In this document: one piece after another, positions 2,769 to 26,680 of the stretch
Layout: each line of letters begins with the position of its first letter
Position numbering within the stretch: the stretch's first letter is position 1
IMG/VR virus record: IMGVR_UViG_3300024187_000016
Location: 1-37,820 of that record
Source of the DNA: a virus
Taxonomy: Duplodnaviria > Caudoviricetes
Reading direction: 5' to 3' (one strand)
DNA: 37,820 nucleotides
Made by a program: the position numbers and the translations under genes
Notes under the pieces: generated by a model
Database searches by the model: none
The model's input: the letters and a program-made list of their open reading frames with translations, nothing else
What the model was told of the DNA's origin: nothing

Positions 2769-2963
2769 ATGGACAGTGTACCTGAGCGGCCGTTCGAGAC
2801 GATCGAGGTGGTCAACGAGCACCTCACGATCCGACGGGTCTACAAGCCAGACAAGGACCGCTGCGTCGCAGCCACCGTTCTCCTGCTGCGCGCCGCTGCG
2901 CAGGCTCGCGCTACCAGGCTCGCCCGCGAAGCCGCCGAGCAGAGCGCCGAGGCCGAGCGATGA
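2769..2963 (+). CDS. Small protein translationally coupled to the integrase
   Basis: Near-perfect SD and an ATGA overlap with the integrase start. Confidence 0.75.
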   Translation: MDSVPERPFETIEVVNEHLTIRRVYKPDKDRCVAATVLLLRAAAQARATRLAREAAEQSAEAER

Positions 2964-4723
2964 GCGCGCGGCGCGGCAGGGGCGGGCTGATCCCGCTCAC
3001 CGATGAGTTCGTGGCCTACGCCTACAAGCGCGTGTCATCCGACGATCAAGAGAAGGACGGGATGTCACTGCCGGTTCAGGACAAGGAGCTGCTGGCGGAG
3101 ATCGCCAGGCATGAGACCTGGACCTTCGGCGGGTCGTTTCAGGACGTGCAGACGGGGACCAACCCGACGCGCGCCGACTATCAGCGGATGCTTGCGGCAG
3201 CACGAGCTGCGACGGCTGCCGGCAAGCGGGTCGTTATCACGGTTGTCAGGCAGAATCGGCTCGGCCGCGACGGCGAAGAAGCGCTCCGTGCCTGGAAAGA
3301 GTTCGACCGCCTCGACGCGCAGCTCTGGGCGACCCGTGATGGTGGACACCTGGCCGATCCGCTGATGTACGGGGTTCGTGCCATCCTCGCCGAGCACGAC
3401 GTTCGTCAGATCAGCGAGAACGTCAAGGGGACATTCGCCGAGATTCGGGCGAACGGCTGGCTCAAGCCTGGCCGTCCTCGCTGGGGCTACCGTTGGGAGC
3501 CAGCGACCACGGAGCAGCGTCAGCTCCAGGGCTCGCCAATGGTGGTGCCCGTGCCGCACCCGATCGAAGCGGAGTACGTGCGTGAGTTGTTTCTCCGACG
3601 GGCTCGAGGCGAGACGATCCGCGCACTCTCAACCTGGGTACGGAGCCTGCCAGTCGCGGCTAGGGGCGAAGTTCGACGGCATAACGGGAGCATGAGCCCG
3701 CGCGAGCTCTCAGTATCCGCCGTCAAGGACGTGCTCGACTCGCCCGTCTACATCGCCAGGAATCCCGAACCTGGGCAAGACGCGCTCGACGCGCCGGTCG
3801 GCAAGTGGGAGCCGCTGTGCGACGACGTGGCGTGGCGCGCGATCCATCCGCGAACGGGAGCGCGAGAGAACGTCGTCTCGACATCGGCTCGGGGGCAGTA
3901 CGTGCTCACGGGCTTTCTGTTCTGCGAGCTCTGCGGAGCTCGGATGTGCGGGCAGCTCCAGCGTGGTGCGCGCCGCGTCCGACCTGGCCGCCGCGACACC
4001 ATCTCGTCTGATACGCGCGTCTACATCTGTACGTCACGGATGGCAGGCGCCTCGCACGGGACGAAGCCATGCTACCGGACGATCAAGGCAGACCTGATCG
4101 AGGGGCAGATCCTGGGTATCCTGGGCACGCTGCTCGATGCGCTGAAGGAGCCCGGCGTGCGTGAGGCGGTGCGGAAGGCTGCGCGAGACCTGGAGTCGAG
4201 AGATGCGGCGACGGGTGATGCGCGGCGGCTGCGAAACGCCGAGCAGGATCGCGCTGCACTGGTGGCCGAGCGCGTTGGCCTGACGCGCACGCTCTCGGCG
4301 GGCATCATCACGGGTGAGGCCTACGCCGAAGCGGTCGCGGTCATCTCCGCTGGGATCGACGCGCAGGCCGCGGAGATCGCGAGGCTGACGGCGTTGCAGG
4401 TGGGCCAGCAGCGGCGGATGGCGGAGCGGCCAGCGGTTGACGTGATCCTGGATACCGCCGAGGACTGGGCGTGGATGCTCCGAGAGGGGGCCGTCGAAGA
4501 CCAGCGCGCGTTCTTGAAGCTGGTGCTGGAGCGGGCGACGCCGAAGCGGCTCAAGCCTGGGAAGTACCAGGCGGGGATGCACTACACCGGGCTCGGGTGG
4601 CAGGTGATCGAGCTGGGGGCGGCGGTGCTGCCGTTGCTTGGCCGGGTTGAAGATGTTCAGCGGGTCTGGGCTCACTGTACGGCTTCAACCCGGCCGGACG
4701 AAGCCCTCGCCGCCGCGTCCTGA
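2960..4723 (+). CDS. int: Large serine recombinase (phage integrase)
   Basis: Catalytic motif YKRVSSDDQ..GMSL..Q, RADYQRM, RLGRD, a recombinase domain (GYRW), zinc ribbon LTGFLFCELCGARM...YIC...C, and a coiled coil. Confidence 0.95.
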   Translation: MSARRGRGGLIPLTDEFVAYAYKRVSSDDQEKDGMSLPVQDKELLAEIARHETWTFGGSFQDVQTGTNPTRADYQRMLAAARAATAAGKRVVITVVRQNRLGRDGEEALRAWKEFDRLDAQLWATRDGGHLADPLMYGVRAILAEHDVRQISENVKGTFAEIRANGWLKPGRPRWGYRWEPATTEQRQLQGSPMVVPVPHPIEAEYVRELFLRRARGETIRALSTWVRSLPVAARGEVRRHNGSMSPRELSVSAVKDVLDSPVYIARNPEPGQDALDAPVGKWEPLCDDVAWRAIHPRTGARENVVSTSARGQYVLTGFLFCELCGARMCGQLQRGARRVRPGRRDTISSDTRVYICTSRMAGASHGTKPCYRTIKADLIEGQILGILGTLLDALKEPGVREAVRKAARDLESRDAATGDARRLRNAEQDRAALVAERVGLTRTLSAGIITGEAYAEAVAVISAGIDAQAAEIARLTALQVGQQRRMAERPAVDVILDTAEDWAWMLREGAVEDQRAFLKLVLERATPKRLKPGKYQAGMHYTGLGWQVIELGAAVLPLLGRVEDVQRVWAHCTASTRPDEALAAAS

Positions 4724-6023: not shown

Positions 6024-6254
6024 GTGTCTAGCGCACCCCGCGTGCCAGTCATCCACGCCGACCTGGGCCCGTCCGCCCGCCATGCCTTCGGCCGCTGGGT
6101 GGGGAGTGTCTACGGCCTGGTGGCGCACCTCGACGTCTGCTGCTTCGGCTGCACCGCCGAGATGACGCGCTGCTCTGAGGGTGACGCGGCGGTCGACGAC
6201 GAGCAGGCGCAGTGGCAGGCCTGGCGCGCTGCGAGGGAGATCGAGCCGTGCTAG
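6024..6254 (+). CDS. Small Cys/His-containing hypothetical protein
   Basis: AAAGGAGAG RBS, GTG start, HLDVCCFGC...C motif, and overlap with the next gene. Confidence 0.65.
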   Translation: MSSAPRVPVIHADLGPSARHAFGRWVGSVYGLVAHLDVCCFGCTAEMTRCSEGDAAVDDEQAQWQAWRAAREIEPC

Positions 6255-6745
6255 CGCTGGCGGGGTACATCGGCTGCATCGTGGCCGCCAATCTGACGCT
6301 GGCGCTGGTCGGCCTGGTGCCTGTCGGCTTCGGCCTGATGGCGCCAGCTGGCGTGCTCTGGGCGGGCCTGGCCTTGACGCTGCGCGACATCACGCAGGAC
6401 CAGCTCGGCCGCTGGCCTGTTGTCGGTGCGGTCCTCGCTGGCGCCGCGCTCTCCTGGCTCATCTCGCCCGCGTTCGCCGCAGCCTCGGGCGCCGCGTTCC
6501 TGGTCTCCGAGCTGGCGGACTTCGCGGTCTACACGCCGATCAGGCAGCGTCACTGGCTGACGGCGGTGGCGCTCTCCAACTCGGTCGGACTGCTGGTCGA
6601 CAGCGTGCTGTTCCTGTGGCTCGCCTTCGGCAGTCTGGAGTTCTTAGCCGGGTTGGTGGTCGGCAAGGTCTGGATCACGCTGGCGACGGTGGCCGTGCTT
6701 GCAGTCGTTCGGAATCGGAGGCCGGCATGGCGCTTCGCACACTGA
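6248..6745 (+). CDS. yhhQ: VUT-family (YhhQ-like) preQ0/preQ1 transporter
   Basis: Multi-TM protein with VUT signatures IVAAN, PAG..WAGLALTLRD, ASGAAFLVSELADFAVY and SNSVGLLVDSVLFLWLAFG. Start placed at GTG 6248 after GAGGGA. Confidence 0.88.
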   Translation: MLALAGYIGCIVAANLTLALVGLVPVGFGLMAPAGVLWAGLALTLRDITQDQLGRWPVVGAVLAGAALSWLISPAFAAASGAAFLVSELADFAVYTPIRQRHWLTAVALSNSVGLLVDSVLFLWLAFGSLEFLAGLVVGKVWITLATVAVLAVVRNRRPAWRFAH

Positions 6746-7053
6746 GCCTTGACCCAAGTGAGAAGCCGATCTCGATCAGTCTCGCCGGTCGGCTCACCTG
6801 TCGATGTCCGATCAACGGCCGGATGGATTACGCCACCGTTGAAGTGGCGTACATCCCGACCGGCGCCGTCATGGAACTGGAGGCGTTCGCGCGCTACCTC
6901 GACGGGTTCAGCAGCCGAACAGTCTTCCACGAAACGGTGACCCAGGAGATTGCCGAGGAGGTCTACCAAGCGACCGAAGCCGACGACATCACCGTCAGGA
7001 CGCGCTGGGACGCCGTCGAGGGCATCGCTTGTACCGTGGTGGCCCACCGATGA
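6727..7053 (+). CDS. QueF-like T-fold enzyme (QueF-L, preQ0 amidinotransferase type)
   Basis: 108 aa with CPINGRMDY (catalytic Cys/Asp), YIP and FHE motifs. The NADPH-binding QueF motif E(S/L)K(S/A)hK is replaced by ELEAFAR. It is the 3' part of track ORF 6181-7053, with RBS GGAGG before ATG 6727. Confidence 0.8.
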   Translation: MALRTLSLDPSEKPISISLAGRLTCRCPINGRMDYATVEVAYIPTGAVMELEAFARYLDGFSSRTVFHETVTQEIAEEVYQATEADDITVRTRWDAVEGIACTVVAHR

Positions 7054-11364: not shown

Positions 11365-11985
11365 ATGATGCCGACGGCAACCGTAGCGGAGCTCCAGGCG
11401 ATGACCGCTGAGAACCATGGCCATCAGGCAGCCGATGCTGTCCGGACCGCACCGTGGATGGTGCTGCGGGTGCCGAGCGAGGCCGAGTTCGGCGACGACG
11501 AGTTCTTCGCCTCGACGGCGCTGGCTCATCGCGCCGAGGTCCTCGAGGCGCGTCACCCCGACCTGTTCGGCCACCTGGCCGACCTCAAGGTCGTCTACCT
11601 GTGGAAAAGAACGGGCGGCAAGGCGAAGGGCAAGGGCGTCTACGGCAAGACGGCGAAGGCGTCGGGTTTGGTCAAGCACTTCTCGGAGCACGCGGCGTTC
11701 GTGATCTGGCTGGCGGCCGATCACTGCCGCGGTGCTGGCTACACCGAGCGGCAGCTCGAGGCGCTGCTGTTCCAGGAGCTGTGTCATACGACCGTCGCCG
11801 AGGTCGACGAGGAGACGGGACGCGGCGGCGGGCCAGCGCTCGTGCCGTACGACGTCGAGACGTTCCGCGCGGTGATCGAGGTCTACGGGCTCTGGGATGC
11901 CGACCTGCGTGACGTGGCGCCAGCGTTCCGCCAGGCTGGGCTGTTCGACGCGGGCGAGGAAGCCGACGCGGAGGACGATGACTGA
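11365..11985 (+). CDS. Putative phage metallopeptidase family protein with a degenerate active site
   Basis: VYLWK...GK..K..G...FVIWL...EALLFQELCH...PYDVETF..V...YGLW matches the family pattern, which normally has HELxH and HDxEEF. Confidence 0.7.
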   Translation: MMPTATVAELQAMTAENHGHQAADAVRTAPWMVLRVPSEAEFGDDEFFASTALAHRAEVLEARHPDLFGHLADLKVVYLWKRTGGKAKGKGVYGKTAKASGLVKHFSEHAAFVIWLAADHCRGAGYTERQLEALLFQELCHTTVAEVDEETGRGGGPALVPYDVETFRAVIEVYGLWDADLRDVAPAFRQAGLFDAGEEADAEDDD

Positions 11986-13235
11986 TGGCCGTTGCGCTTG
12001 AATCGCCGTCGGCAGTCATGCTGCCGGTTGAGTCGGTCCAGTTCGTCAGAGAGCTGTACCCACGGCTCCGCGAAGACGACGCCGCGATCGAGCGCTACCG
12101 CGCGGCACTCGATCGGTTACCGCCGATCATCGTCGCTCGCGGACGGGTCCTGGTCGACGGCTTCCACCGCTGGCAGGCGCACCGCCGCGAACAGGCAGAG
12201 ACGATCGCGGCGGTCGATCTCGGCGACCTGGCCGACATCGAGATTCTGAAGGAGTCGGTCCGTCGCAACTCGGGTCACGGGCGCCAGCTCGATACCCGAG
12301 ACAAAAAGCGTATGGCGGATCAGCTCTGGCGTCAGGGCGTCCGCGATGAGTCGGAATTGGCCGACCTGCTCAGCATCACGCCAAAAACCTGCGCGGAGTA
12401 TGTGCGCGGCGCCAAGCGTGACGAGCGGCAGGCGCAGAAAGAGTCGGCCTGGGATCGGTGGCTCAACTGCGAGTCATACCGTCAGATCGGCGCCGCGCTC
12501 GACGTTGACCACCAGACGGTTGCGGCGTGGTGTGGGGAATTCTCCAATCAATTGGGAAATTCCCCACCTGACTCCCGCCAGCACTTCGACGTCTGGCCGT
12601 TCGCGCAATCCGACGACGACGCAGGCGCCGCGTCGTTCTTCGGGCGGATGCCGCCGCAGGTCGTCGAGAATCTCCTCTGGCGCTACACCGAACCGGGCCA
12701 GATCGTCGTCGACCCGTTCGCGGGATCTGGGACGACGATCGACGTTGCGAAGCGGATGGGCCGGCGTGTCTGGGCGAGCGACCTGTATCCGTCGACGCCG
12801 ATGCTTCCGATCCATCAGCACGACATCGCGAGCGGCTGGCCGCCGTCCGCGCCAGGCCGTGCAGAGCTGATCGTGCTCGACCCGCCGTACTGGAAGCAGG
12901 CGGCCGGGCGCTACAGCAGCGACGAGCGCGACCTGGGAAACCAGACGCTTGACGAGTTCATGGCGTCGTGGCGCGCGGTCGTGGCGGCGTGCATGCCGCA
13001 TCTCGGGAGCGGCGGGCGGCTGGCGTTCATCGTCTCGCCCACGCACGACGGCGAGCGGGTTGTTGATCACGCGCTCGAGATGTGGTTCACCTGTCGGGAT
13101 CAAGGGCTTGCCGTTGAGCGACGGTACATCGTGCCGTACCAGACGCAGCAGGCGACCGGGCAGCAGGTCGAGTGGGCGCGCGAGCACCGTGTCGATCTGA
13201 AGCTGTATCGCGATCTCGTGGTGATGCGGACATGA
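11985..13235 (+). CDS. ParB-N / HTH / amino-DNA methyltransferase fusion
   Basis: ParB motif LPPIIV...LVDGFHRWQA, HTH SYRQIGAALDVDHQTV, MTase motif I VVDPFAGSGTT followed by motif IV LDPPYW. Confidence 0.88.
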   Translation: MAVALESPSAVMLPVESVQFVRELYPRLREDDAAIERYRAALDRLPPIIVARGRVLVDGFHRWQAHRREQAETIAAVDLGDLADIEILKESVRRNSGHGRQLDTRDKKRMADQLWRQGVRDESELADLLSITPKTCAEYVRGAKRDERQAQKESAWDRWLNCESYRQIGAALDVDHQTVAAWCGEFSNQLGNSPPDSRQHFDVWPFAQSDDDAGAASFFGRMPPQVVENLLWRYTEPGQIVVDPFAGSGTTIDVAKRMGRRVWASDLYPSTPMLPIHQHDIASGWPPSAPGRAELIVLDPPYWKQAAGRYSSDERDLGNQTLDEFMASWRAVVAACMPHLGSGGRLAFIVSPTHDGERVVDHALEMWFTCRDQGLAVERRYIVPYQTQQATGQQVEWAREHRVDLKLYRDLVVMRT

Positions 13236-18884: not shown

Positions 18885-18899
18885 CGGGAGGTGATCGCC

Positions 18900-20903
18900 G
18901 TGGGCGTCTGGGATTGGATCGGCCCGCTGAACGCGGGATCGAAGCGCCGCGGCTGGGACGCGCTGCCTGCTGCGATCGAGACCAAGGCGTCGCCAGCGTC
19001 CGTGGCACCGCCGCCGACGCAGATCACGACGCTGACGTACACGCCGCCAGGCTGGCAGTTCGCCTACGACGGCGGCAGCCAGACCGCCATGAACAGTGCC
19101 GTCGCGGCCTGCTTGCAGGCGATCGCCACGGCCATTGCGGAGCCGGAGCTGCGGCTCTATCGTGCCGACGGGAGCGATCGCGTCGAAGTCGACGCCGGCG
19201 AGCTCGGGCACCTGCTGGAGCACCCGAACCCGTACATGAGCCTGGATACGCTGCTCGGGTATCTGGCGACCTGCTTGCACGTCGACGGTAACGCCTACTG
19301 GCGGAAGCTCCGCTCCGGCGACCCGGAGACCGGCCCCGTCGTCGAGCTCTGGCCAATCTCACCGACCCGGATGACGGTCGAGACCCAGAGCGGCTCGGGC
19401 GACTTTATCACCCGCTACCGCTATGCGCCGGGCAGCAAGCCGTCCGAGACGATCAGCCCGTCGAACATCGTCCACTTCCGGTACGGCCTCAACGACCGCG
19501 ATCACCGGCTCGGCGCAGCACCGCTCACACGGTTGGTCCGCGAGATCAGCTCCGATGACCAGGCGACGCGCTACGCCGACCGCCTGCTGGCGAACCTGGC
19601 GATTAACGGGCTGACGCTCTCGTTCGACAAGGAGGCACCGCCGATCGACCAGGCGACGGCCGACGAGCTCAAGGCCCGGATTCAGGCGGCCTATGGTGGC
19701 GACAACGTCGGCGGCGCGGCGGTGCTCTCGCCGGGGGCGAAGCTCGACGCGCTCGGCTTCTCGCCGGAGCAGATGAGCATGGAGATTCTGCATCGGGTGC
19801 CAGAGGAGCGGATCTCGGCCGTGCTCGGCGTCCCAGCCATCGTCGCGGGGCTCGGCGCCGGCTTGCAGCGGGCGACCTATAGCAACGTCCGCGAAGCTAG
19901 AGAGATGTTTACCGAGCAAAAGCTAATCCCGCTCTGGCGGGCGCTTGCCGCCGAGATCACGCTGCAACTGGTGCCGGACTTCGACAGCTCCGGACGGACG
20001 CTCGTCGACTTCGACATCACGACCGTCCGAGCACTCGGCGACGACCAGAACGCCGCGGCGACCCGACTCAAGACGCTGGTCGAGGCCGGCATCCTGACAG
20101 CCGACGAGGCGCGCATCGAGATCGGGTACGAGCCGCGGCCGCAACAGGACGTCCTGCCGTCGCCGGTCGCCCTGCCGGCCGCCGCATCCCGCCGCCTGGT
20201 GCGCGCGCTGGTGCCGGACCGGAAAGCGGCCGAGGATCTGCCGGATCGCTACGCCGACCTTCGCTCTGCCACGCTCCCAACCTGGGAGGACGAGCTGGTT
20301 GCGTTCTTCGCAGCCCAGCAGCGGCGCGTGAACGCTCGGCTGCGCGCCGGCGCCGACGTGGCGTCGGATCTGGTCACCGAGGGCGAGGCCGTGCTGCTCG
20401 AGGCCACGCTCGAGCCGCTCCAACGCTCGCTGCTGGGCGCCGTCTCGCGGATCGTCGAGGCCGAGCTGGCGATCAGCTTCCAGCTCGACGACGCGGCGAC
20501 GCGGCACTTTTTGCGGACGGCCGGCGTCAACATTGGCGGCATCACCGAGACGACCCGCCGTGCGGTCCAGGATGCACTGCTCGCAGGGCAGGAGGCCGGC
20601 GAGGGCATCCCAGAGCTTGCGCGCCGGCTGCGTGGCCTGCCGTCGTTCAGCCAGGCTCGAGGGCGCGTTGTTGCACGCAGCGAGCTTGGCACGTCGCAGA
20701 ACACCGCGGCGATCGCCAGTTATCGGGCGTCTGGGGTCGTGGTCGGTGTGCGCGTGCTCGATGGTGATTACGACGACGCCTGCGCCGCGATGAACGGGCG
20801 GACGTTCACGCTCGGCCAGGAGCCGGCGGCGCTCCAGCACCCGAACTGTACGCGCGCCATGCTCCCGATTACGGACGCCGACGAGCTCACACGCTCAGCC
20901 TAG
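18900..20903 (+). CDS. HK97-type portal fused to a MuF (gpF/SPP1 gp7-like) minor head domain
   Basis: Portal motifs (NSAVAAC, LLEHPNPYMS, GNAYW, ELWPI.P, IVHFR, GVP, YSN, T.DEAR), then VARSE...C..MNG...HPNCTR. GGGAGGTGAT RBS before GTG 18900. Confidence 0.93.
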   Translation: MGVWDWIGPLNAGSKRRGWDALPAAIETKASPASVAPPPTQITTLTYTPPGWQFAYDGGSQTAMNSAVAACLQAIATAIAEPELRLYRADGSDRVEVDAGELGHLLEHPNPYMSLDTLLGYLATCLHVDGNAYWRKLRSGDPETGPVVELWPISPTRMTVETQSGSGDFITRYRYAPGSKPSETISPSNIVHFRYGLNDRDHRLGAAPLTRLVREISSDDQATRYADRLLANLAINGLTLSFDKEAPPIDQATADELKARIQAAYGGDNVGGAAVLSPGAKLDALGFSPEQMSMEILHRVPEERISAVLGVPAIVAGLGAGLQRATYSNVREAREMFTEQKLIPLWRALAAEITLQLVPDFDSSGRTLVDFDITTVRALGDDQNAAATRLKTLVEAGILTADEARIEIGYEPRPQQDVLPSPVALPAAASRRLVRALVPDRKAAEDLPDRYADLRSATLPTWEDELVAFFAAQQRRVNARLRAGADVASDLVTEGEAVLLEATLEPLQRSLLGAVSRIVEAELAISFQLDDAATRHFLRTAGVNIGGITETTRRAVQDALLAGQEAGEGIPELARRLRGLPSFSQARGRVVARSELGTSQNTAAIASYRASGVVVGVRVLDGDYDDACAAMNGRTFTLGQEPAALQHPNCTRAMLPITDADELTRSA

Positions 20904-21174: not shown

Positions 21175-21566
21175 GCGAGCGCGTGGAGCGCAACTGCCGT
21201 CACTGTGGCCGCGTGACGATGATGTCTCGGTACGTCCGGTATCGGTACCAGCATTGCGAGCCGTGCCAGACGGCGTACCGCGTGCGCCTGTTTCGCCTCG
21301 AGGCTGCCTTGGCCACACGGTATCCGCGACTCATGGAGAGCGGCCTGGGGAAACGGTGCATCAGGCCGCTCGCATCGGCGTACGCCTGGGAGGGCATCGA
21401 GGGCGTGGCCGCGGCGCACGATGCAGCACTGCTTGTGATCGAGGACTTTGGGCCGCGCATGTTGGCCGTCTTCCGCGCAGCATGTCCTCCGCCGCCGGCC
21501 GAGCGCACCTGGGCGCCAGAGCCAGACTGGGCCGAGCACGCGGCGATGGTGGCGCTGGGATCATGA
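21171..21566 (+). CDS. Zinc ribbon fused to an RNA polymerase alpha-CTD-like helical domain
   Basis: CRHC...CEPC, then SGLGKRCIRPL...GIEGVAAAHDAALLVIEDFGPRMLAVF, which parallels the alpha-CTD/HhH pattern L..R..N.L...I......LL.I.NFG.KSL. Confidence 0.55.
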   Translation: MSERVERNCRHCGRVTMMSRYVRYRYQHCEPCQTAYRVRLFRLEAALATRYPRLMESGLGKRCIRPLASAYAWEGIEGVAAAHDAALLVIEDFGPRMLAVFRAACPPPPAERTWAPEPDWAEHAAMVALGS

Positions 21567-22207
21567 ACGGCCGTCGGCTGGTCTCCGTCATCACGCCGAC
21601 CTGGCAGCGTGCGGAACTGCTGGCCGCCGCAATCCAGAACGTTCGCCTGCAGACGTACCGGCCGCTCGAGCACGTGATCGTCTCCGACGGCGACGATCGC
21701 GAGACGGCCCGCGTGGCGGTCTCGGCGCTCGATTGCGCGCTGTTCTCCGACCCGAGCCGAGATGTCCGCGTCCGCTACGTGCCGCTCGGCCGCAACTGGT
21801 CGTCGTTCCTGCCGGCGTCGTTCGCCGCCGCCCCCATGACGGTCGGCATGTTGCTCGCCTCCGGCACGTATCAGACCTGGCTTGCCGATGACGAGTGGAT
21901 GACGCTTGATCACATCGAGGGCCTGGTCAACGCCCTCGAAGCGGCCGACGCCGACCTGGCCTACAGTCGCGTCCGCATGTACCGCAACGGCTCTACCCCA
22001 GATCAGGGGTACGATATCGGCACCGAGCCGCCGGAGCTCGGGCAGATCACGAATGTCCTCTACCGCGCGGAGTTGCTCAAGCATGGCCTCTACCCGTTCG
22101 GCGCTGGCATGACGTCGGACTGGGCGTGCATCGAGCGCTGGCTGGCCGCTGGCGCGCGCTGCGCATTCGTGCCGCGCGTGACGCTCACGCACCGGGTGGA
22201 TCACTGA
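21563..22207 (+). CDS. Glycosyltransferase family 2 (GT-A)
   Basis: LVSVITPTWQR..LL...I..V..QTY..LEHVIVSDG, a DxD-like WLADDE, and SDW. Confidence 0.9.
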   Translation: MNGRRLVSVITPTWQRAELLAAAIQNVRLQTYRPLEHVIVSDGDDRETARVAVSALDCALFSDPSRDVRVRYVPLGRNWSSFLPASFAAAPMTVGMLLASGTYQTWLADDEWMTLDHIEGLVNALEAADADLAYSRVRMYRNGSTPDQGYDIGTEPPELGQITNVLYRAELLKHGLYPFGAGMTSDWACIERWLAAGARCAFVPRVTLTHRVDH

Positions 22208-22398
22208 TGGCCTTCGAGAAACTCAGCATTACCCTCGAGGTCGGCGAGTACGAGGCGCTCTCTCAGCTCGCAGAACGGGAGCTGCGCTCAATACCACAGC
22301 AAGCACGATTCCACATCCGCGAGGCGCTTATCGCCGCGGGCCTGCTCACTCCAGGGGGCGCCGTCACGTGGTCGCGCTCGATTTCGTCGGATCGCTGA
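22207..22398 (+). CDS. Ribbon-helix-helix (Arc-like) regulator
   Basis: KLSITL strand followed by YEALSQLAERELRSIPQQARFHIREAL; TGATG coupling. Confidence 0.7.
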   Translation: MAFEKLSITLEVGEYEALSQLAERELRSIPQQARFHIREALIAAGLLTPGGAVTWSRSISSDR

Positions 22399-22399
22399 C

Positions 22400-23050
22400 A
22401 TGGCGAGCTGGACCGAGGCGAAGGCGGTGATTGGCACCGAGCGCGTGCTGCTCGGGCCGCAGGCGTCGCAGCAGTGGCTCGCGGCGCCCGAGCATCTCGC
22501 GATGGTGCTGGCCCGCTACCGCGCGGCGGCGGCCCTGATCGGCGGGGCTGATCACGTGCTAGAGGTAGGCTGCGGCGAAGGGATCGGGGCGCGCATCCTG
22601 GCGGACGGACGGTCGTGGTATGTCGGCATCGACACCGATGGGGACGCGATCCAGGTCGCGCAGTCGCACGATCTGTCTGACACGACGGAGTCGCTCTTCC
22701 AGCAGCGCGACGTCGGCGTCGTTGAGCCCGTGGACTACGATGCCGTCGTCGCGCTCGACGTCATCGAACACGTCCAGGACGGCACGGCGTTCCTGCGCAC
22801 GCTCGCCGAGCATGTGTCACCGCACGGCGTCTGCGTCATTGGCACGCCGAGCGCGCGCTTCGACCACCTGGCATCGCCGCAGAGCCGGAGCGGCCACGTC
22901 GCAACGTACACCCACGACGAGCTGTACGAGCTGATGGAGCATCACTTCCGCGTCGTCCAGTCCTTCGGCATGCAAGACACCGCGCTGCATCTCGGGCACC
23001 CCGAGGCGCGCCACTACCTGCTCATGTGTGGGATCGGGCCCCGTGGCTGA
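22400..23050 (+). CDS. Class I SAM-dependent methyltransferase (non-DNA type)
   Basis: ARY, VLEVGCGEG, YVGID, YDAVVALDVIEHV and G...IGTP motifs. Confidence 0.92.
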   Translation: MASWTEAKAVIGTERVLLGPQASQQWLAAPEHLAMVLARYRAAAALIGGADHVLEVGCGEGIGARILADGRSWYVGIDTDGDAIQVAQSHDLSDTTESLFQQRDVGVVEPVDYDAVVALDVIEHVQDGTAFLRTLAEHVSPHGVCVIGTPSARFDHLASPQSRSGHVATYTHDELYELMEHHFRVVQSFGMQDTALHLGHPEARHYLLMCGIGPRG

Positions 23051-24173
23051 GCGATTGACGGGGCCGCGCATGTTGGGGCTCGTCGGCGATATGTCTGGGC
23101 CGAGTCTGTGGCGCGTGCTCCAGCCGTTCACGGCGCTCCAGGCCGCGGGCTACCCGTGCGGCTGGGATCGGAAGGACGCGCCCGGCATCGGGGAGATCGC
23201 GCCGGCCTTCGACGGCTTCGTGCTGCCGCGCATGTCCTGGCCGCCGCCTCAGCGCCGGATTGCCGAAGCCTGGTTCGCCGCCCTCAGAGCGGCCAGGCGC
23301 TTCGTGGTCTACGATGCGGATGACGACGTCTTCACCAGTCAACTGTCGTTCAGAACGATCGAGCTCGGCTGGTCGGAGGGCAAATCCTTCCCCGAGCTCG
23401 AGGCTGAGCGCTTTCAGCGGATCTGGGCCATGCAGCAGTGTGACGGCGTCACCGTCAGCACGCAGCGGCTCGCCACGGTCGTCCGTAGCTACACGGACAA
23501 GCCCGTGATCGTCGTCCCCAATGCGATTGACGTTCCGTGGTTCCGGCGCGTTCTGGGGGCCACCACGCGCCAGCAGCACGGACTGACGATCGGCTGGGCC
23601 GGCGGGCGTCGGCCGGATGCGGACCTGGCGCCGATGGCCGCGGCCTGGGGGCGGATCGCTCGGCGGTTTCCAGCTTGCCCCGAGCGAGGAACGAGCCGAG
23701 GGGTGACGTTCGTCGTCCAGGGCCATGTGCCGGCCGTCGTCACGGAACAGGTGCCGGCTGAGCGCCTGGTCCTGCTGCCGTGGATGCCGCTTGAGCAGTA
23801 CCCGGCCGGGCTCAAGGAGATCGACATCGGCTGTGCGGCCGTCACCGACGATCGCTTCAACCGCTGTAAATCGACGATCAAGGCGATGGAGTACGCCGTC
23901 GCGGGCGCGGCCGTGGTGGCGACGCCAACCGTCTACGGCAGCATCATCGAGCACGGCCAGAACGGCTACCTGGCCGAAACGGCCGACGAGTGGGAGCACG
24001 CGCTCTCGGAGCTGGTCTCGCGGCCAGCGCTGCGCTCGATCATGCGGACCCGGCTGCGCAAGCGCGTGGAGCGGAAGCATAGCCTGACGGCGAATCTCTG
24101 GCGCTGGCCTCAAGCCTGGCAGACGATCGCCGAGGATGCGAGAGCCCGCCGGGGACGGTTGGTGACGGTGTGA
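23043..24173 (+). CDS. GT-B (family 4-like) glycosyltransferase
   Basis: VVYDADDD, CDGVTVST..L, VVPNAID, IGWAGG, FNRCKSTIKAMEYAVAGAAVVAT and IEHGQNGYL. Confidence 0.9.
   Translation: MAERLTGPRMLGLVGDMSGPSLWRVLQPFTALQAAGYPCGWDRKDAPGIGEIAPAFDGFVLPRMSWPPPQRRIAEAWFAALRAARRFVVYDADDDVFTSQLSFRTIELGWSEGKSFPELEAERFQRIWAMQQCDGVTVSTQRLATVVRSYTDKPVIVVPNAIDVPWFRRVLGATTRQQHGLTIGWAGGRRPDADLAPMAAAWGRIARRFPACPERGTSRGVTFVVQGHVPAVVTEQVPAERLVLLPWMPLEQYPAGLKEIDIGCAAVTDDRFNRCKSTIKAMEYAVAGAAVVATPTVYGSIIEHGQNGYLAETADEWEHALSELVSRPALRSIMRTRLRKRVERKHSLTANLWRWPQAWQTIAEDARARRGRLVTV
23673..23703 (+). repeat. REP-like short repeat inserted in frame in the GT4 gene
   Basis: GCTTGCCCCGAGCGAGGAACGAGCCGAGGGG encodes ACPERGTSRG and interrupts RRFP-x-VTFVVQG. 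It resembles the GC(T/C)TGCCCTGAGC...GTCGAAGGG repeat type. Confidence 0.65.
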
Positions 24174-24364
24174 TTGAGAACTGCCGCGACTGCACGTGGT
24201 GGAAGTCAATCGAGGACGTCGAGCCCGGTCTGGGGATCTGCACCATGCTGTCAACGTTTGATGACGATCGCCGCCCGATCCAGCTCCACATGGGATACGG
24301 GCGCGGTCAGATCATTGCGGTAGGTGAGCTCTTCGGGTGCAAGTTCTTTGAGGCTCGGGGCTAG
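24170..24364 (+). CDS. Small four-Cys protein
   Basis: CRDCTWW...GIC...FGCKFF; GTGA overlap with the upstream gene. Confidence 0.65.
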   Translation: MIENCRDCTWWKSIEDVEPGLGICTMLSTFDDDRRPIQLHMGYGRGQIIAVGELFGCKFFEARG

Positions 24365-24366
24365 CC

Positions 24367-24525
24367 GTGGCCGCCTCGTCGTGGCGTGAGCCGACGCCGC
24401 CAGCGGTGCTCACGGTCGAGCGCTGCAAGGCCTGCCGGCGCCGGCTCGGCGACTTCGACGGCAAGGGTCGCGCCGAGATCGTCTGCCCGAAGTGCGGCGT
24501 GATGAACACCATCCGCCCAAAGTAG
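24367..24525 (+). CDS. Mu Com-like zinc-ribbon RNA-binding protein, 52 aa, not in the ORF track
   Basis: Manual translation ...VERCKACRRRLGDFDGKGRAEIVCPKCGVMNTIRPK fits the Com pattern RCxxCxxLL...EIxCPxCxxxN. Confidence 0.8.
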   Translation: MAASSWREPTPPAVLTVERCKACRRRLGDFDGKGRAEIVCPKCGVMNTIRPK

Positions 24526-24530
24526 ACCGC

Positions 24531-24559
24531 TTGCGCAGCCGACCGCCCGGTGCGATACT
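24531..24559 (+). promoter_or_regulatory. Promoter of the protease-capsid-tail operon
   Basis: TTGCGC (24531-24536), 17 bp spacer, GATACT (24554-24559), with TG at the extended -10 position. Confidence 0.6.
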
Positions 24560-24581
24560 GGCCAGCAGCTGTTCCGTAACC

Positions 24582-24642
24582 CAGAGGGCCACCGAGCCCC
24601 GATTCTGACGCCCGTTGAGGCGCGCGAGATCGGGGCTTTTCT
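24582..24642 (+). promoter_or_regulatory. Leader RNA switch: two com-type hairpins plus a competing RBS-masking/terminator stem
   Basis: Site 1 CA-GA-GGGC-CACC-GA-GCCC-C (24582-24600) and site 2 CT-GA-CGCC-CGTT-GA-GGCG-C (24605-24623). Alternative stem AGCCCCGAT (24595-24603) / ATCGGGGCT (24629-24637), then a U-rich run up to the ATG. Confidence 0.75.
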
Positions 24643-25224
24643 ATGGGCCTTGAGTACAAAAGCATCCCGTTCGCGGTCAAGGCCGCCGACCGGAACGCCG
24701 ATGACAGCGGCTGGGAGATCGCGGGACTCGCTAGCACGTGGTGGGGCGAGCCTGACAGTTACGGCGACGTCGTCCAGCCTGGCGCGTTCGCCGCGTCGAT
24801 CGCCGAGCGCGCGACCAAGTTTCTGTATGAGCATCACACGCCGATCGGCAAACAGCTCGAGCTCCGCGAGACCGACGAAGGGCTCTACGGCCGCTGGTCG
24901 GTCGTCGACACGATGGTCGGCACCGACGCCTACAAACTGGCGAAGGCCGGCGTCCTCGACAGCCTGAGCATCGGCTACATCCCGCTCGAGTGGGAGAGCC
25001 GCGGCGACGGCGCTCGCGTGCTCCAGAAGTGCGAGCTCTACGAGGTCTCGGCCGTCGCCATTCCGGCCAACACGAACGCCGTCATTACCGCCGTCAAGGC
25101 AGCAACGCCGCCCGCGCCGAGCCAGCCGCGTCTGAACGTCGGTGCCGAGCTGCGTCGTCGCCGACTGGCGCGCCACGGCATCGCCAACCTGAGCATCACA
25201 TCTGATGCTGGAGCCACATCATGA
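24643..25224 (+). CDS. HK97-family prohead maturation protease
   Basis: GLAS....DSYGDVV.PGAF, LYEH..PIG, GL, SLSIGY and LYEVSAVAIPAN. Confidence 0.95.
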   Translation: MGLEYKSIPFAVKAADRNADDSGWEIAGLASTWWGEPDSYGDVVQPGAFAASIAERATKFLYEHHTPIGKQLELRETDEGLYGRWSVVDTMVGTDAYKLAKAGVLDSLSIGYIPLEWESRGDGARVLQKCELYEVSAVAIPANTNAVITAVKAATPPAPSQPRLNVGAELRRRRLARHGIANLSITSDAGATS

Positions 25225-25382
25225 GCCAGCCACAGCCAGCCGCCCCGGACCGTCAGCCACGAGAGCGCCCCGAGCGTGACCAGCGAGCGCCGAAGGATCC
25301 GAACGCGCCGGCCGATCCCACGACCGAGCCCACTGATCCGAACCAGCCGGCGCCGGCGCCCGACGAGGAGGCTACACCGTGA
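25221..25382 (+). CDS. 53-aa Pro/Asp/Glu-rich disordered peptide, not in the ORF track
   Basis: ATGA overlap with the protease stop and GTGA overlap with the capsid start; MSQPQPAAPDRQPRERPERDQRAPKDPNAPADPTTEPTDPNQPAPAPDEEATP. Confidence 0.55.
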   Translation: MSQPQPAAPDRQPRERPERDQRAPKDPNAPADPTTEPTDPNQPAPAPDEEATP

Positions 25383-26680
25383 GCATGACCATCCCCGAGG
25401 CGCACGCCGAGATCCGTCGGCTCTATGACGCGGCAGCGGCGATCGAGAACAAGTACCCGTCCGGCCTGACCCAGGACGACAACGCCGAGGACTACGCCGA
25501 GGCCAAGCGCTTGCTCGGCGCAATCGACGGCCTCGAGGATGCGCTCTCCGGCCTCGAGGACGCCGCCGCCCGCAAGCAGCGCATCCTCGAGAACCAGAAG
25601 CGGCTCCGCCAGCCGGTCAACGGCCACACCCAGCCGGACGACGACGGGCCAGGCGGCGATGCCGGCCGGGCGCCGAAGATGTTCGGACGCCAGTTTGTCG
25701 AGAGCGGCGAGTACAAGCGGATCATCGAGAGCGGCGCGCTCAACAACCCGTCGACGCGCGTGGAGCTCGGCGTCAAACTTGACGGCTCGCTGCTCCACGA
25801 GCTGCTCCGCAAAGCGCTGGTCCACTCCGGGAGCGGCGTCGGCGGCGCGACGATCCGCCCCGACCGCGTCGCCGGGCCGGACTTCCTCTGGCGCCAGACC
25901 ACGCTCCTCGACCTGATCCCGACGTCCTCAACCACGTCGAACATGATCGAGTACTACGAGATGACCCTGTCGCAGAACGCGGCAGCTCCCGTCGCCGAGG
26001 CGACCAACACGACGGGTGCGACCGGCCTGAAGCCGGAGGGCGCGATCGGCTGGACACTGCGCCAGACGCCGGTGTCGACGATCGCGGAATGGGTGCCCAT
26101 TACCAATCAGATGCTCGCCGACTCGCCGGCCGTCCAGTCGATGATCGAGAACCAGCTGCTCACGCACCTGGCGCTGGCGCTGGAAACCCAGATCATCAGC
26201 GGCAACGGCACGGCGCCGAACCTGCTCGGCATCCTGTCGAATCCGAACATCCTGACGACCGGGCTCGGCGCCGGCTCCGGATCGGCGGCCGATGCCGTCT
26301 ACCACGCCATGACCGCCGTCATGGTCACCGGGCTCTCGAATCCGACCGCGTCGGTCTGGAACCCGGTCGACTTCGAGGCCGTCCGTCTCTCCCGCGAGAC
26401 GGGGGCAAGCGGCGGCGCTTACCTCATGGGCCCGCCCAGCGTGGCTGGCCCGACGACGCTCTGGGGCCGTCCGGTCGTGCTCTCGATCGGCACCCCGGTC
26501 GACACGGTCGTCGTCGCGGACTTCACCCAGATGACGCTGTATGACCGCGAGCAGAGCGCCATCCGGACCGGGACGATCAACGACCAGTTTATTCGGAACA
26601 TGCAAACCCTGCTGGCAGAGCTCCGGGCGGCGTTCGCGCTGTTCCGCCCGATGGCGGTCTGCCGGGTCACCGGGGCCTGA
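25379..26680 (+). CDS. Major capsid protein, HK97 fold, with N-terminal delta/scaffold region
   Basis: Coiled-coil N-terminus, VAE...KPE, TIAEWVPITNQMLAD, QIISGNG....LLGI, NP.D, TLWGRPVV and F.RNM..LLAE.R; GAGGAGG RBS. Confidence 0.96.
   Translation: MSMTIPEAHAEIRRLYDAAAAIENKYPSGLTQDDNAEDYAEAKRLLGAIDGLEDALSGLEDAAARKQRILENQKRLRQPVNGHTQPDDDGPGGDAGRAPKMFGRQFVESGEYKRIIESGALNNPSTRVELGVKLDGSLLHELLRKALVHSGSGVGGATIRPDRVAGPDFLWRQTTLLDLIPTSSTTSNMIEYYEMTLSQNAAAPVAEATNTTGATGLKPEGAIGWTLRQTPVSTIAEWVPITNQMLADSPAVQSMIENQLLTHLALALETQIISGNGTAPNLLGILSNPNILTTGLGAGSGSAADAVYHAMTAVMVTGLSNPTASVWNPVDFEAVRLSRETGASGGAYLMGPPSVAGPTTLWGRPVVLSIGTPVDTVVVADFTQMTLYDREQSAIRTGTINDQFIRNMQTLLAELRAAFALFRPMAVCRVTGA

Follow-up and report, generated by a model that had tools for sequence, protein, structure and literature searches.

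What switches on the head genes of this phage, and does a small zinc-ribbon protein encoded just upstream of them take part in it? The window, meaning the whole stretch of DNA analyzed here (37,820 bases), is a virus record that is nearly complete (98%). Its plus strand carries, in order, genes for the large terminase, a portal-MuF fusion, two glycosyltransferases, and a methyltransferase, followed by a 52-aa ORF, a 117-nt gap, the prohead protease gene, a 53-aa ORF, the capsid gene, and the tail genes. The protease gene (Peptidase_S78, 24643..25224, plus strand) is the first gene under the leader; the start of the 53-aa ORF (25221..25382, plus strand) overlaps the protease stop, and its stop overlaps the start of the major capsid gene (Phage_capsid, 25379..26680, plus strand), which has its own strong ribosome-binding site, open in the fold prediction. 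The answer that we consider probable, from comparison of sequences and modeling of RNA folds, is that a Com-related protein would bind two hairpins in the leader, free the ribosome-binding site, and activate the translation of the head genes, possibly with the assistance of antitermination.

Several other genes describe the phage around this locus. The portal gene has a MuF-like C-terminal domain fused to it (window 18891-20903). The two glycosyltransferase genes and the SAM methyltransferase gene between portal and protease (21563-24173) are kept in relatives and possibly serve virion or host-surface glycosylation, and a 64-aa ORF with a CxxC motif (24170-24364) is inserted between the glycosyltransferase and ribbon genes. 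A large serine recombinase gene (2960-4723) is consistent with a temperate lifestyle. A QueF/GTP cyclohydrolase-like gene (6181-7053) and an N6/N4 methyltransferase gene (11985-13235) suggest DNA modification, and no Com-type site was found upstream of either of them in the window.

A sequence-only reading of this DNA had pointed out an unannotated four-cysteine zinc ribbon of 52 aa upstream of the protease and had called it Com-like. The ORF is there (24367..24525, plus strand), as the last gene of the terminase-portal run and the sole such gene in the genome, and it belongs to the first of the four classes described below. Its cysteines, Cys20, 23, 40, and 43 (C-x2-C-x16-C-x2-C), have a spacing identical to that of Mu Com, with Cys6, 9, 26, and 29 (PMC3299994). 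PHROG 6417, 'translational regulator', matches the protein with an E value of 1e-5, a comparison of its class profile with three canonical Com proteins gives an hhalign probability of 97.6, and 'phage FluMu protein Com' is the source name for three of its eight sequence-search matches. The Pfam Com model (PF10122) gives it 17.6 bits, below the curated cut-off of 22.9, and a different zinc-ribbon family scores about equally; among the seven class I orthologs scanned, three pass the cut-off (L003, L008, and P0007, with 23.7, 37.4, and 25.9) and four stay below. No match to an NCBIfam model was obtained. Cysteine spacing, PHROG match, passing orthologs, and profile alignment thus bear out the Com-like identity, and the 52-aa protein is best described as Com-related and its membership in PF10122 as borderline. 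The predicted structure is a confident four-strand ribbon (pLDDT 91) of a generic zinc-ribbon kind, and no structural match at E<=0.001 was found for it in PDB or BFVD. Compared with Mu Com, the protein is extended at its N terminus and does not have the long C-terminal tail: only nine residues follow the last cysteine, and the disordered C-terminal segment is absent. As described in PMC6483171, this portion of Com is not required for binding and is possibly needed for melting; according to PMC6240691, tail length varies within the family.

The leader contains two Com-type hairpins on the plus strand. Site 1 (24584..24600) consists of GA at 24584-85, the stem GGGC at 24586-89, the loop CACCGA, the stem GCCC at 24596-99, and C at 24600. 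Site 2 (24607..24623) follows 23 nt later with GA at 24607-08, CGCC at 24609-12, the loop CGUUGA, GGCG at 24619-22, and C at 24623; folded singly, each gives a 4-bp hairpin with a 6-nt loop. The sequence-only reading was correct in describing tandem hairpins of like architecture with the stems GGGC/GCCC and CGCC/GGCG. It had also recognized the architecture of the Mu com operator, and here experimental data are available: SELEX with a Haemophilus Com selected NGAGNNCC(N)2-3GAGNNCCNN, in which the loop GA is crucial (PMC6483171). Site 1 fits this selected motif, with the CC(N)2-3GAG loop, the C-G closing pair, and the full bipartite pattern, of which it is the single match on both strands of the 37.8 kb; in site 2, the loop motif and the closing pair are present. 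The looser GA-stem-loop-GAG pattern occurs three times in the window, two of them 23 nt apart in the leader, compared with an expected mean of 0.48 in 100 shuffled windows. A further site-like element at 25263 lies inside a reading frame, is also present in class II and III loci, and was not counted.

In the predicted fold of the whole leader, a long stem takes over part of site 1. Its 5' arm (24594..24604, plus strand) overlaps site 1, so that the loop GA and the 3' arm of this hairpin are paired within it, and its 3' arm (24628..24638, plus strand) buries the GGGG ribosome-binding site (24632-35, 7 nt before the ATG at 24643). The earlier claim of a stem that shares the 3' arm of site 1 and hides the GGGG therefore stands, with the length changed from 9 bp to 11 bp, namely nine Watson-Crick and two G-U pairs. 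The region 24593-24645 has a fold z of -4.3, and opening the start region costs 21.6 kcal/mol compared with 3.3-15.6 for 18 other genes of the window. A partial overlap of target and inhibitory structure is also reported for Mu Com (PMC6483171). The two folds had been called mutually exclusive; this is true of site 1 and the long stem, whereas site 2 is compatible with the stem, sits at its apex, and can be forced there at a cost of 2.1 kcal/mol.

The relatives of this leader were collected by a protease-based search, which gave 46 close loci, of which 30 were distinct after 16 duplicates had been dropped. These 30, the window, and three metagenome loci, minus L102 (a 7.8-kb fragment without such a leader or ribbon), make up 33 leaders; L100, cut 137 nt upstream, was excluded from the counts, and L012, in which the contig ends 960 nt after a class I ribbon, was not counted. 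Eight further weak metagenome matches to the ribbon (L017-L024) had no tandem site. Conservation next to homologous zinc-ribbon genes, which the sequence-only reading had made a touchstone of its proposal, was found, since the arrangement is kept beside orthologous genes. In 33/33 leaders a G-rich ribosome-binding site lies 7-9 nt before the start and is predicted to be buried in the long stem, and opening costs 13.8-29.4 kcal/mol, compared with the same 18 genes of the window. Rfam gave seven weak matches in window 23800-25400, none over the leader at gathering score, and 0 matches in 11 related loci.

Within class I, the evidence from covariation is weak. The long stem is 95.5% paired in 12 leaders, with two pairs changed on both sides. 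The small hairpins show one compensatory change in these leaders, a number reached by 34/500 shuffles. Site 2 is paired in 48/48 cells (100%), with one compensatory and one wobble change; site 1 is paired in 91.7%, with imperfect copies in L128 and L133. The earlier statement that structure rather than sequence is conserved is thus overstated, as site 1 is near-invariant in the 12 leaders of the same class, and what is left of it is the one compensatory change. The better pairing of site 2, as well as its compatibility with the long stem, would suit a protein acting as a repressor, which binds the apex site, stabilizes the closed stem, and limits protease and capsid synthesis. We judge this very improbable. 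The leader is predicted to be closed even without protein, so that a repressor would add little; repression leaves unexplained why the site 1 region overlaps the stem in every class that has a 5' hairpin and why site 1 is the better Com match; and Mu Com is described as an activator (PMC6483171).

The closed fold is 10.3 kcal/mol more stable than the one in which both hairpins are forced, the latter may re-bury the ribosome-binding site by pairing with the first codons, and full opening costs 20.6 kcal/mol; melting at equilibrium is therefore unlikely. In the growing transcript, hairpin 1 has a probability of 0.93-0.96 for 3' ends at 24610-24623, before the long stem is possible, which drops to 0.47 at 24630 and 0 at 24634. 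A co-adaptation of the 5' arm of hairpin 1 to the first codons was considered and rejected, as native pairs were no better than swapped ones (14/30, p 0.58).

A promoter between the ribbon gene and the hairpins had been claimed from the sequence. The consensus scan found neither promoter nor terminator; the claim is nonetheless sustained by the relatives, as a TTG lies exactly 17 nt before a -10-like box in 28/33 leaders (TTGACA in L114), with the -10 boxes picked by eye. In the window, the likely -35 box is TTGCGC (24531..24536, plus strand) and the likely -10 box, 17 nt further and likewise chosen by eye, is GATACT (24554..24559, plus strand). The U-rich run between the long stem and the protease ATG was also confirmed: the tail (24637..24644, plus strand) has 6 U in 8 nt, is moderately conserved in relatives, and is possibly a weak terminator tract. 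Across the 33 leaders the 8-nt tail contains 2-7 U with a median of 5 (at least 5 in 18/33, at least 4 in 27/33, and 2-3 in 6/33) and is often interrupted, and U averages 4.2 in the 7 nt that immediately precede the start, compared with 1.1 in 25 other genes of the window.

These tails, together with a promoter about 80 nt upstream and an order of folding that suits co-transcriptional capture, raise the alternative that the long stem is mainly an intrinsic terminator and the protein an antiterminator for the whole head-tail operon. We regard this as unlikely, although less so than repression. A pure terminator would not need the G-rich ribosome-binding site that every leader keeps at its proper distance from the start, tails as short as 2-3 U and frequent interruptions are found, and a simple terminator scan was negative, with a loop limit that excludes the long stem. 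Since the burial of the ribosome-binding site is universal and the U content of the tail varies, translational activation is ranked first, followed by antitermination, and then by repression and by mere linkage, discussed below; the first two may act together.

The preferred reading, translational activation, can be put as a sequence of steps. By default, the long stem would bury the protease ribosome-binding site. Hairpins 1 and 2 are predicted to form first in the growing transcript, where the protein would capture hairpin 1 during transcription, probably assisted by a second molecule on hairpin 2, and ribosomes would then load, with activation as the net result. The signal may pass from the protease to the 53-aa gene and on to the capsid gene through their stop-start overlaps, and head synthesis would have to wait for the expression of the terminase-portal region. 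In the closed state, the U-rich tail may add termination. A translational switch would act directly only on the protease gene and on the two genes that follow it through stop-start overlaps; beyond these genes, control would need termination or polarity, and given the capsid gene's own open ribosome-binding site, control of capsid and tail genes is something that we infer.

The relatives yielded a second line of evidence. The leader sequences fall into four classes with the same layout, and each class has its own ribbon class. Class I, the Com type, comprises 13 loci. In class II, the hairpin is GGGCG...CGCC and the ribbon contains W and CGNRRC; the class consists of two protein subtypes, each paired with one loop type. 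Class III has a GGGC...GCCC hairpin that agrees with class I in stem and loop, mostly with AC in place of the 5' GA, and a ribbon ending in C-x-D-x-R-C. Class IV, with two loci, has ACCACCAGCGG and a CWRCG ribbon, and its 5' hairpin is poorly predicted. In profile alignment, classes III and IV reach 94-95% with canonical Com, and class II reaches 27% with canonical Com and 94% with class III.

Divided into four clusters each, ribbons and leaders gave identical partitions (ARI 1.0 for 27 loci, then for 31/31), where k=4 had been set after four classes had been seen by eye; at other k, the agreement for 31 loci was 0.28 (k=3), 0.79 (k=5), 0.62 (k=6), and 0.58 (k=7). With the ribbon clusters at k=4, the protease agreed at an ARI of 0.0-0.06 and the intervening promoter at 0.12-0.16, and the partial Mantel correlation of ribbon and leader was 0.67 (p 0.0005, 27 loci). 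Several loci are close kin, so that the 31 do not count as 31 independent events, and because gene and leader are physically linked, part of the match reflects the common ancestry of the block. L115 was excluded from the clustering because its ribbon is cut, yet this ribbon is of class II, as is its leader. Four leaders lack a ribbon within 2 kb; in all four, a ribbon was found 2.3-3.3 kb upstream and fell in the leader-matching cluster (4/4). One of them, L129, with a class II leader by eye, has a class II ribbon, and L116, L126, and L131, the leaders of which form a separate group by eye, have three near-identical ribbons of class III type.

The classes are dispersed across the protease tree, and the well-supported sisters L090/L096 and L119/L120 differ in class. 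L090 and L096 share 91% identity on the upstream side and 95% on the downstream side of about 220 bases that do not align. Comparison of the window with the class II locus L088 delimits the exchangeable block: blastn aligns 35 nt at 97% at the ribbon gene start (24358..24392, plus strand, SWREP codons), a left joint common to the four classes; the ribbon core, promoter, and leader (24393..24631, plus strand) have no blastn alignment to L088, and the flanks align at 81% and 88%. In L025 (1983-2300), a larger insert at the position of the 64-aa ORF, between the glycosyltransferase and ribbon genes, is flanked by two copies of the ribbon gene start, suggesting that this start sequence may serve as a recombination joint.

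Such exchange raises the possibility that linkage is all there is: ribbon and leader would travel together as a block, the leader would be a constitutive attenuator or belong to another factor, and the ribbon would have another role, for example binding DNA as an Ogr-like activator. In 20/31 loci, no more than 131 nt lie between the end of the ribbon gene and the start of the protease gene, the swaps replace both partners together, and the generic fold without significant structural match would suit such a role. We consider this as improbable as repression, since several observations separate the pair from its neighborhood. The intervening promoter does not track the ribbon class. Where the gap reaches 600 nt or more (11 loci), ribbon distance correlates with leader distance at a rho of 0.44, compared with 0.16 for the protease and 0.18 for the promoter. 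L089 and L095 (class I) and L092 (class II) have a common promoter and part of an inserted gene in common, and each pair still matches. Finally, the motif of class I is the RNA motif already known for Com, and it recurs in unrelated phages behind their Com genes.

Extra genes amounting to 0.6-3.3 kb occupy the insertion site between ribbon gene and leader in L089, L092, L095, L098, L127, L013, L015, L116, L126, L129, and L131; some of these genes have starts that resemble signal peptides, and in these loci the promoter varies independently of the ribbon-leader pair.

The recurrence in unrelated phages was seen when viral contigs were searched for the tandem motif without regard to the protein. 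This search gave 20 matches, nine with both stems fully paired, and six of these nine lie directly behind a Com-type gene: two in this clade, two that are copies upstream of a tape-measure gene, and two upstream of adenine methyltransferases. In the tandem sites of unrelated phages, stem sequences differ and pairing is retained. The remaining three are a site about 25 kb away from a com gene, a site on a 24% fragment without a com gene, and a simple repeat; among the 11 matches without full pairing, one lies behind a com gene. In genome contigs (10/64 parts), 79 tandem matches had enough flank and none was by a Com-type gene; the one with both stems paired (1/79) was a simple repeat. The exact pattern of site 1 had 13 matches in viral contigs, seven in this clade and six, without ribbon or second hairpin, in unrelated contigs; the latter were set aside as chance.

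Some of these sites deserve a description of their own. In L071/L073, from an unrelated phage, tandem Com-type hairpins (reverse strand, ~1201-1254) stand directly before the tape-measure-like gene, and the Com-like ribbon has C-x4-C as its second pair. L067 (G007, ~26,800) has a fully paired tandem site followed by a U run, ~25 kb from the com gene L300 (G007 1933-2070), which precedes an adenine methyltransferase; it is possible that this distant gene serves the site in trans. L083, a 24% fragment in which no com gene was found, has three Com-type hairpins with a 23-nt period (reverse strand, ~1201-1240), then a terminator-like stem and a U run. Among 27 weak tblastn matches, no cultured phage with the ribbon-leader-protease arrangement was found; three were inspected, two with a methyltransferase next and none before a protease.

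The nearest known system is the Com-mom pair of phage Mu, which shares the four-cysteine ribbon of the same spacing and a hairpin with the SELEX motif that partly overlaps a start-hiding structure. The locus described here differs in its target, which is the prohead protease and capsid rather than a DNA-modification gene; in the separate promoter between gene and leader, with the gene up to 3.3 kb away; and in the three other protein-leader classes that replace class I in relatives. It has been reported that com homologs precede genes for methyltransferases, for bacteriocins, and for lytic enzymes (FluMu, B3, and Pseudomonas llpA loci; PMC3299994, PMC6240691), and phage AP3 is a further example. 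These loci likewise place a com homolog ahead of a gene other than mom, and a hairpin almost the same as site 1 lies within the com gene of AP3, but there the site is at the com end, directly before one cargo gene. In the available text of these papers on com-linked genes, neither a head-morphogenesis target nor specificity classes are named (PMC3299994, PMC6240691), and the general regulatory role of Com is said there to be unexplored so far (PMC6240691). The biochemical characterization of Com, as presented in the available text of PMC6483171, PMC3299994, and PMC6240691, concerns one target, the mom leader. 'Com' is absent from the main text of the RNA-motif surveys PMC11109978, PMC8632094, PMC5737381, and PMC6429828; the supplements of two of them may hold such a motif. 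In our literature search, no paper was found on Com-type control of head genes or on specificity classes. What is new here is the set of 33 leaders in four classes, each with its own ribbon.

The N-nut and Q-qut systems of lambdoid phages are also comparable with the ribbon-leader pairs, in that a small regulator and its cis site are type-specific and are exchanged together between relatives. They differ in that other proteins and folds are involved and act on RNA polymerase, whereas the leader described here hides a ribosome-binding site.

The four matched protein-leader pairs at the same spot in related phages make it likely that this locus is an exchangeable lock-and-key protein-RNA switch that would time capsid production. 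The four classes would form a natural specificity code, and the replacement of GA by AC in class III and the split of class II into subtypes with their own loops make the reading of RNA by Com-type ribbons testable. As Com/com is described as an RNA tether in engineering, this use would benefit from new orthogonal pairs of ~50 residues and 20 nt. If a Com-type site gates virion head genes, an RNA-level activation step would be part of the late program. More tentatively, and at somewhat less than even chance, we propose that the temperate phages of this group carry mutually orthogonal ribbon/leader switches for the timing of capsid synthesis, exchanged as cassettes of ~220-280 bp and forming a post-transcriptional counterpart of immunity groups. 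If this is true, the cassettes would be a natural source of new RNA-protein pairs beyond Com/com, and co-resident phages would be kept from activating each other's head genes.
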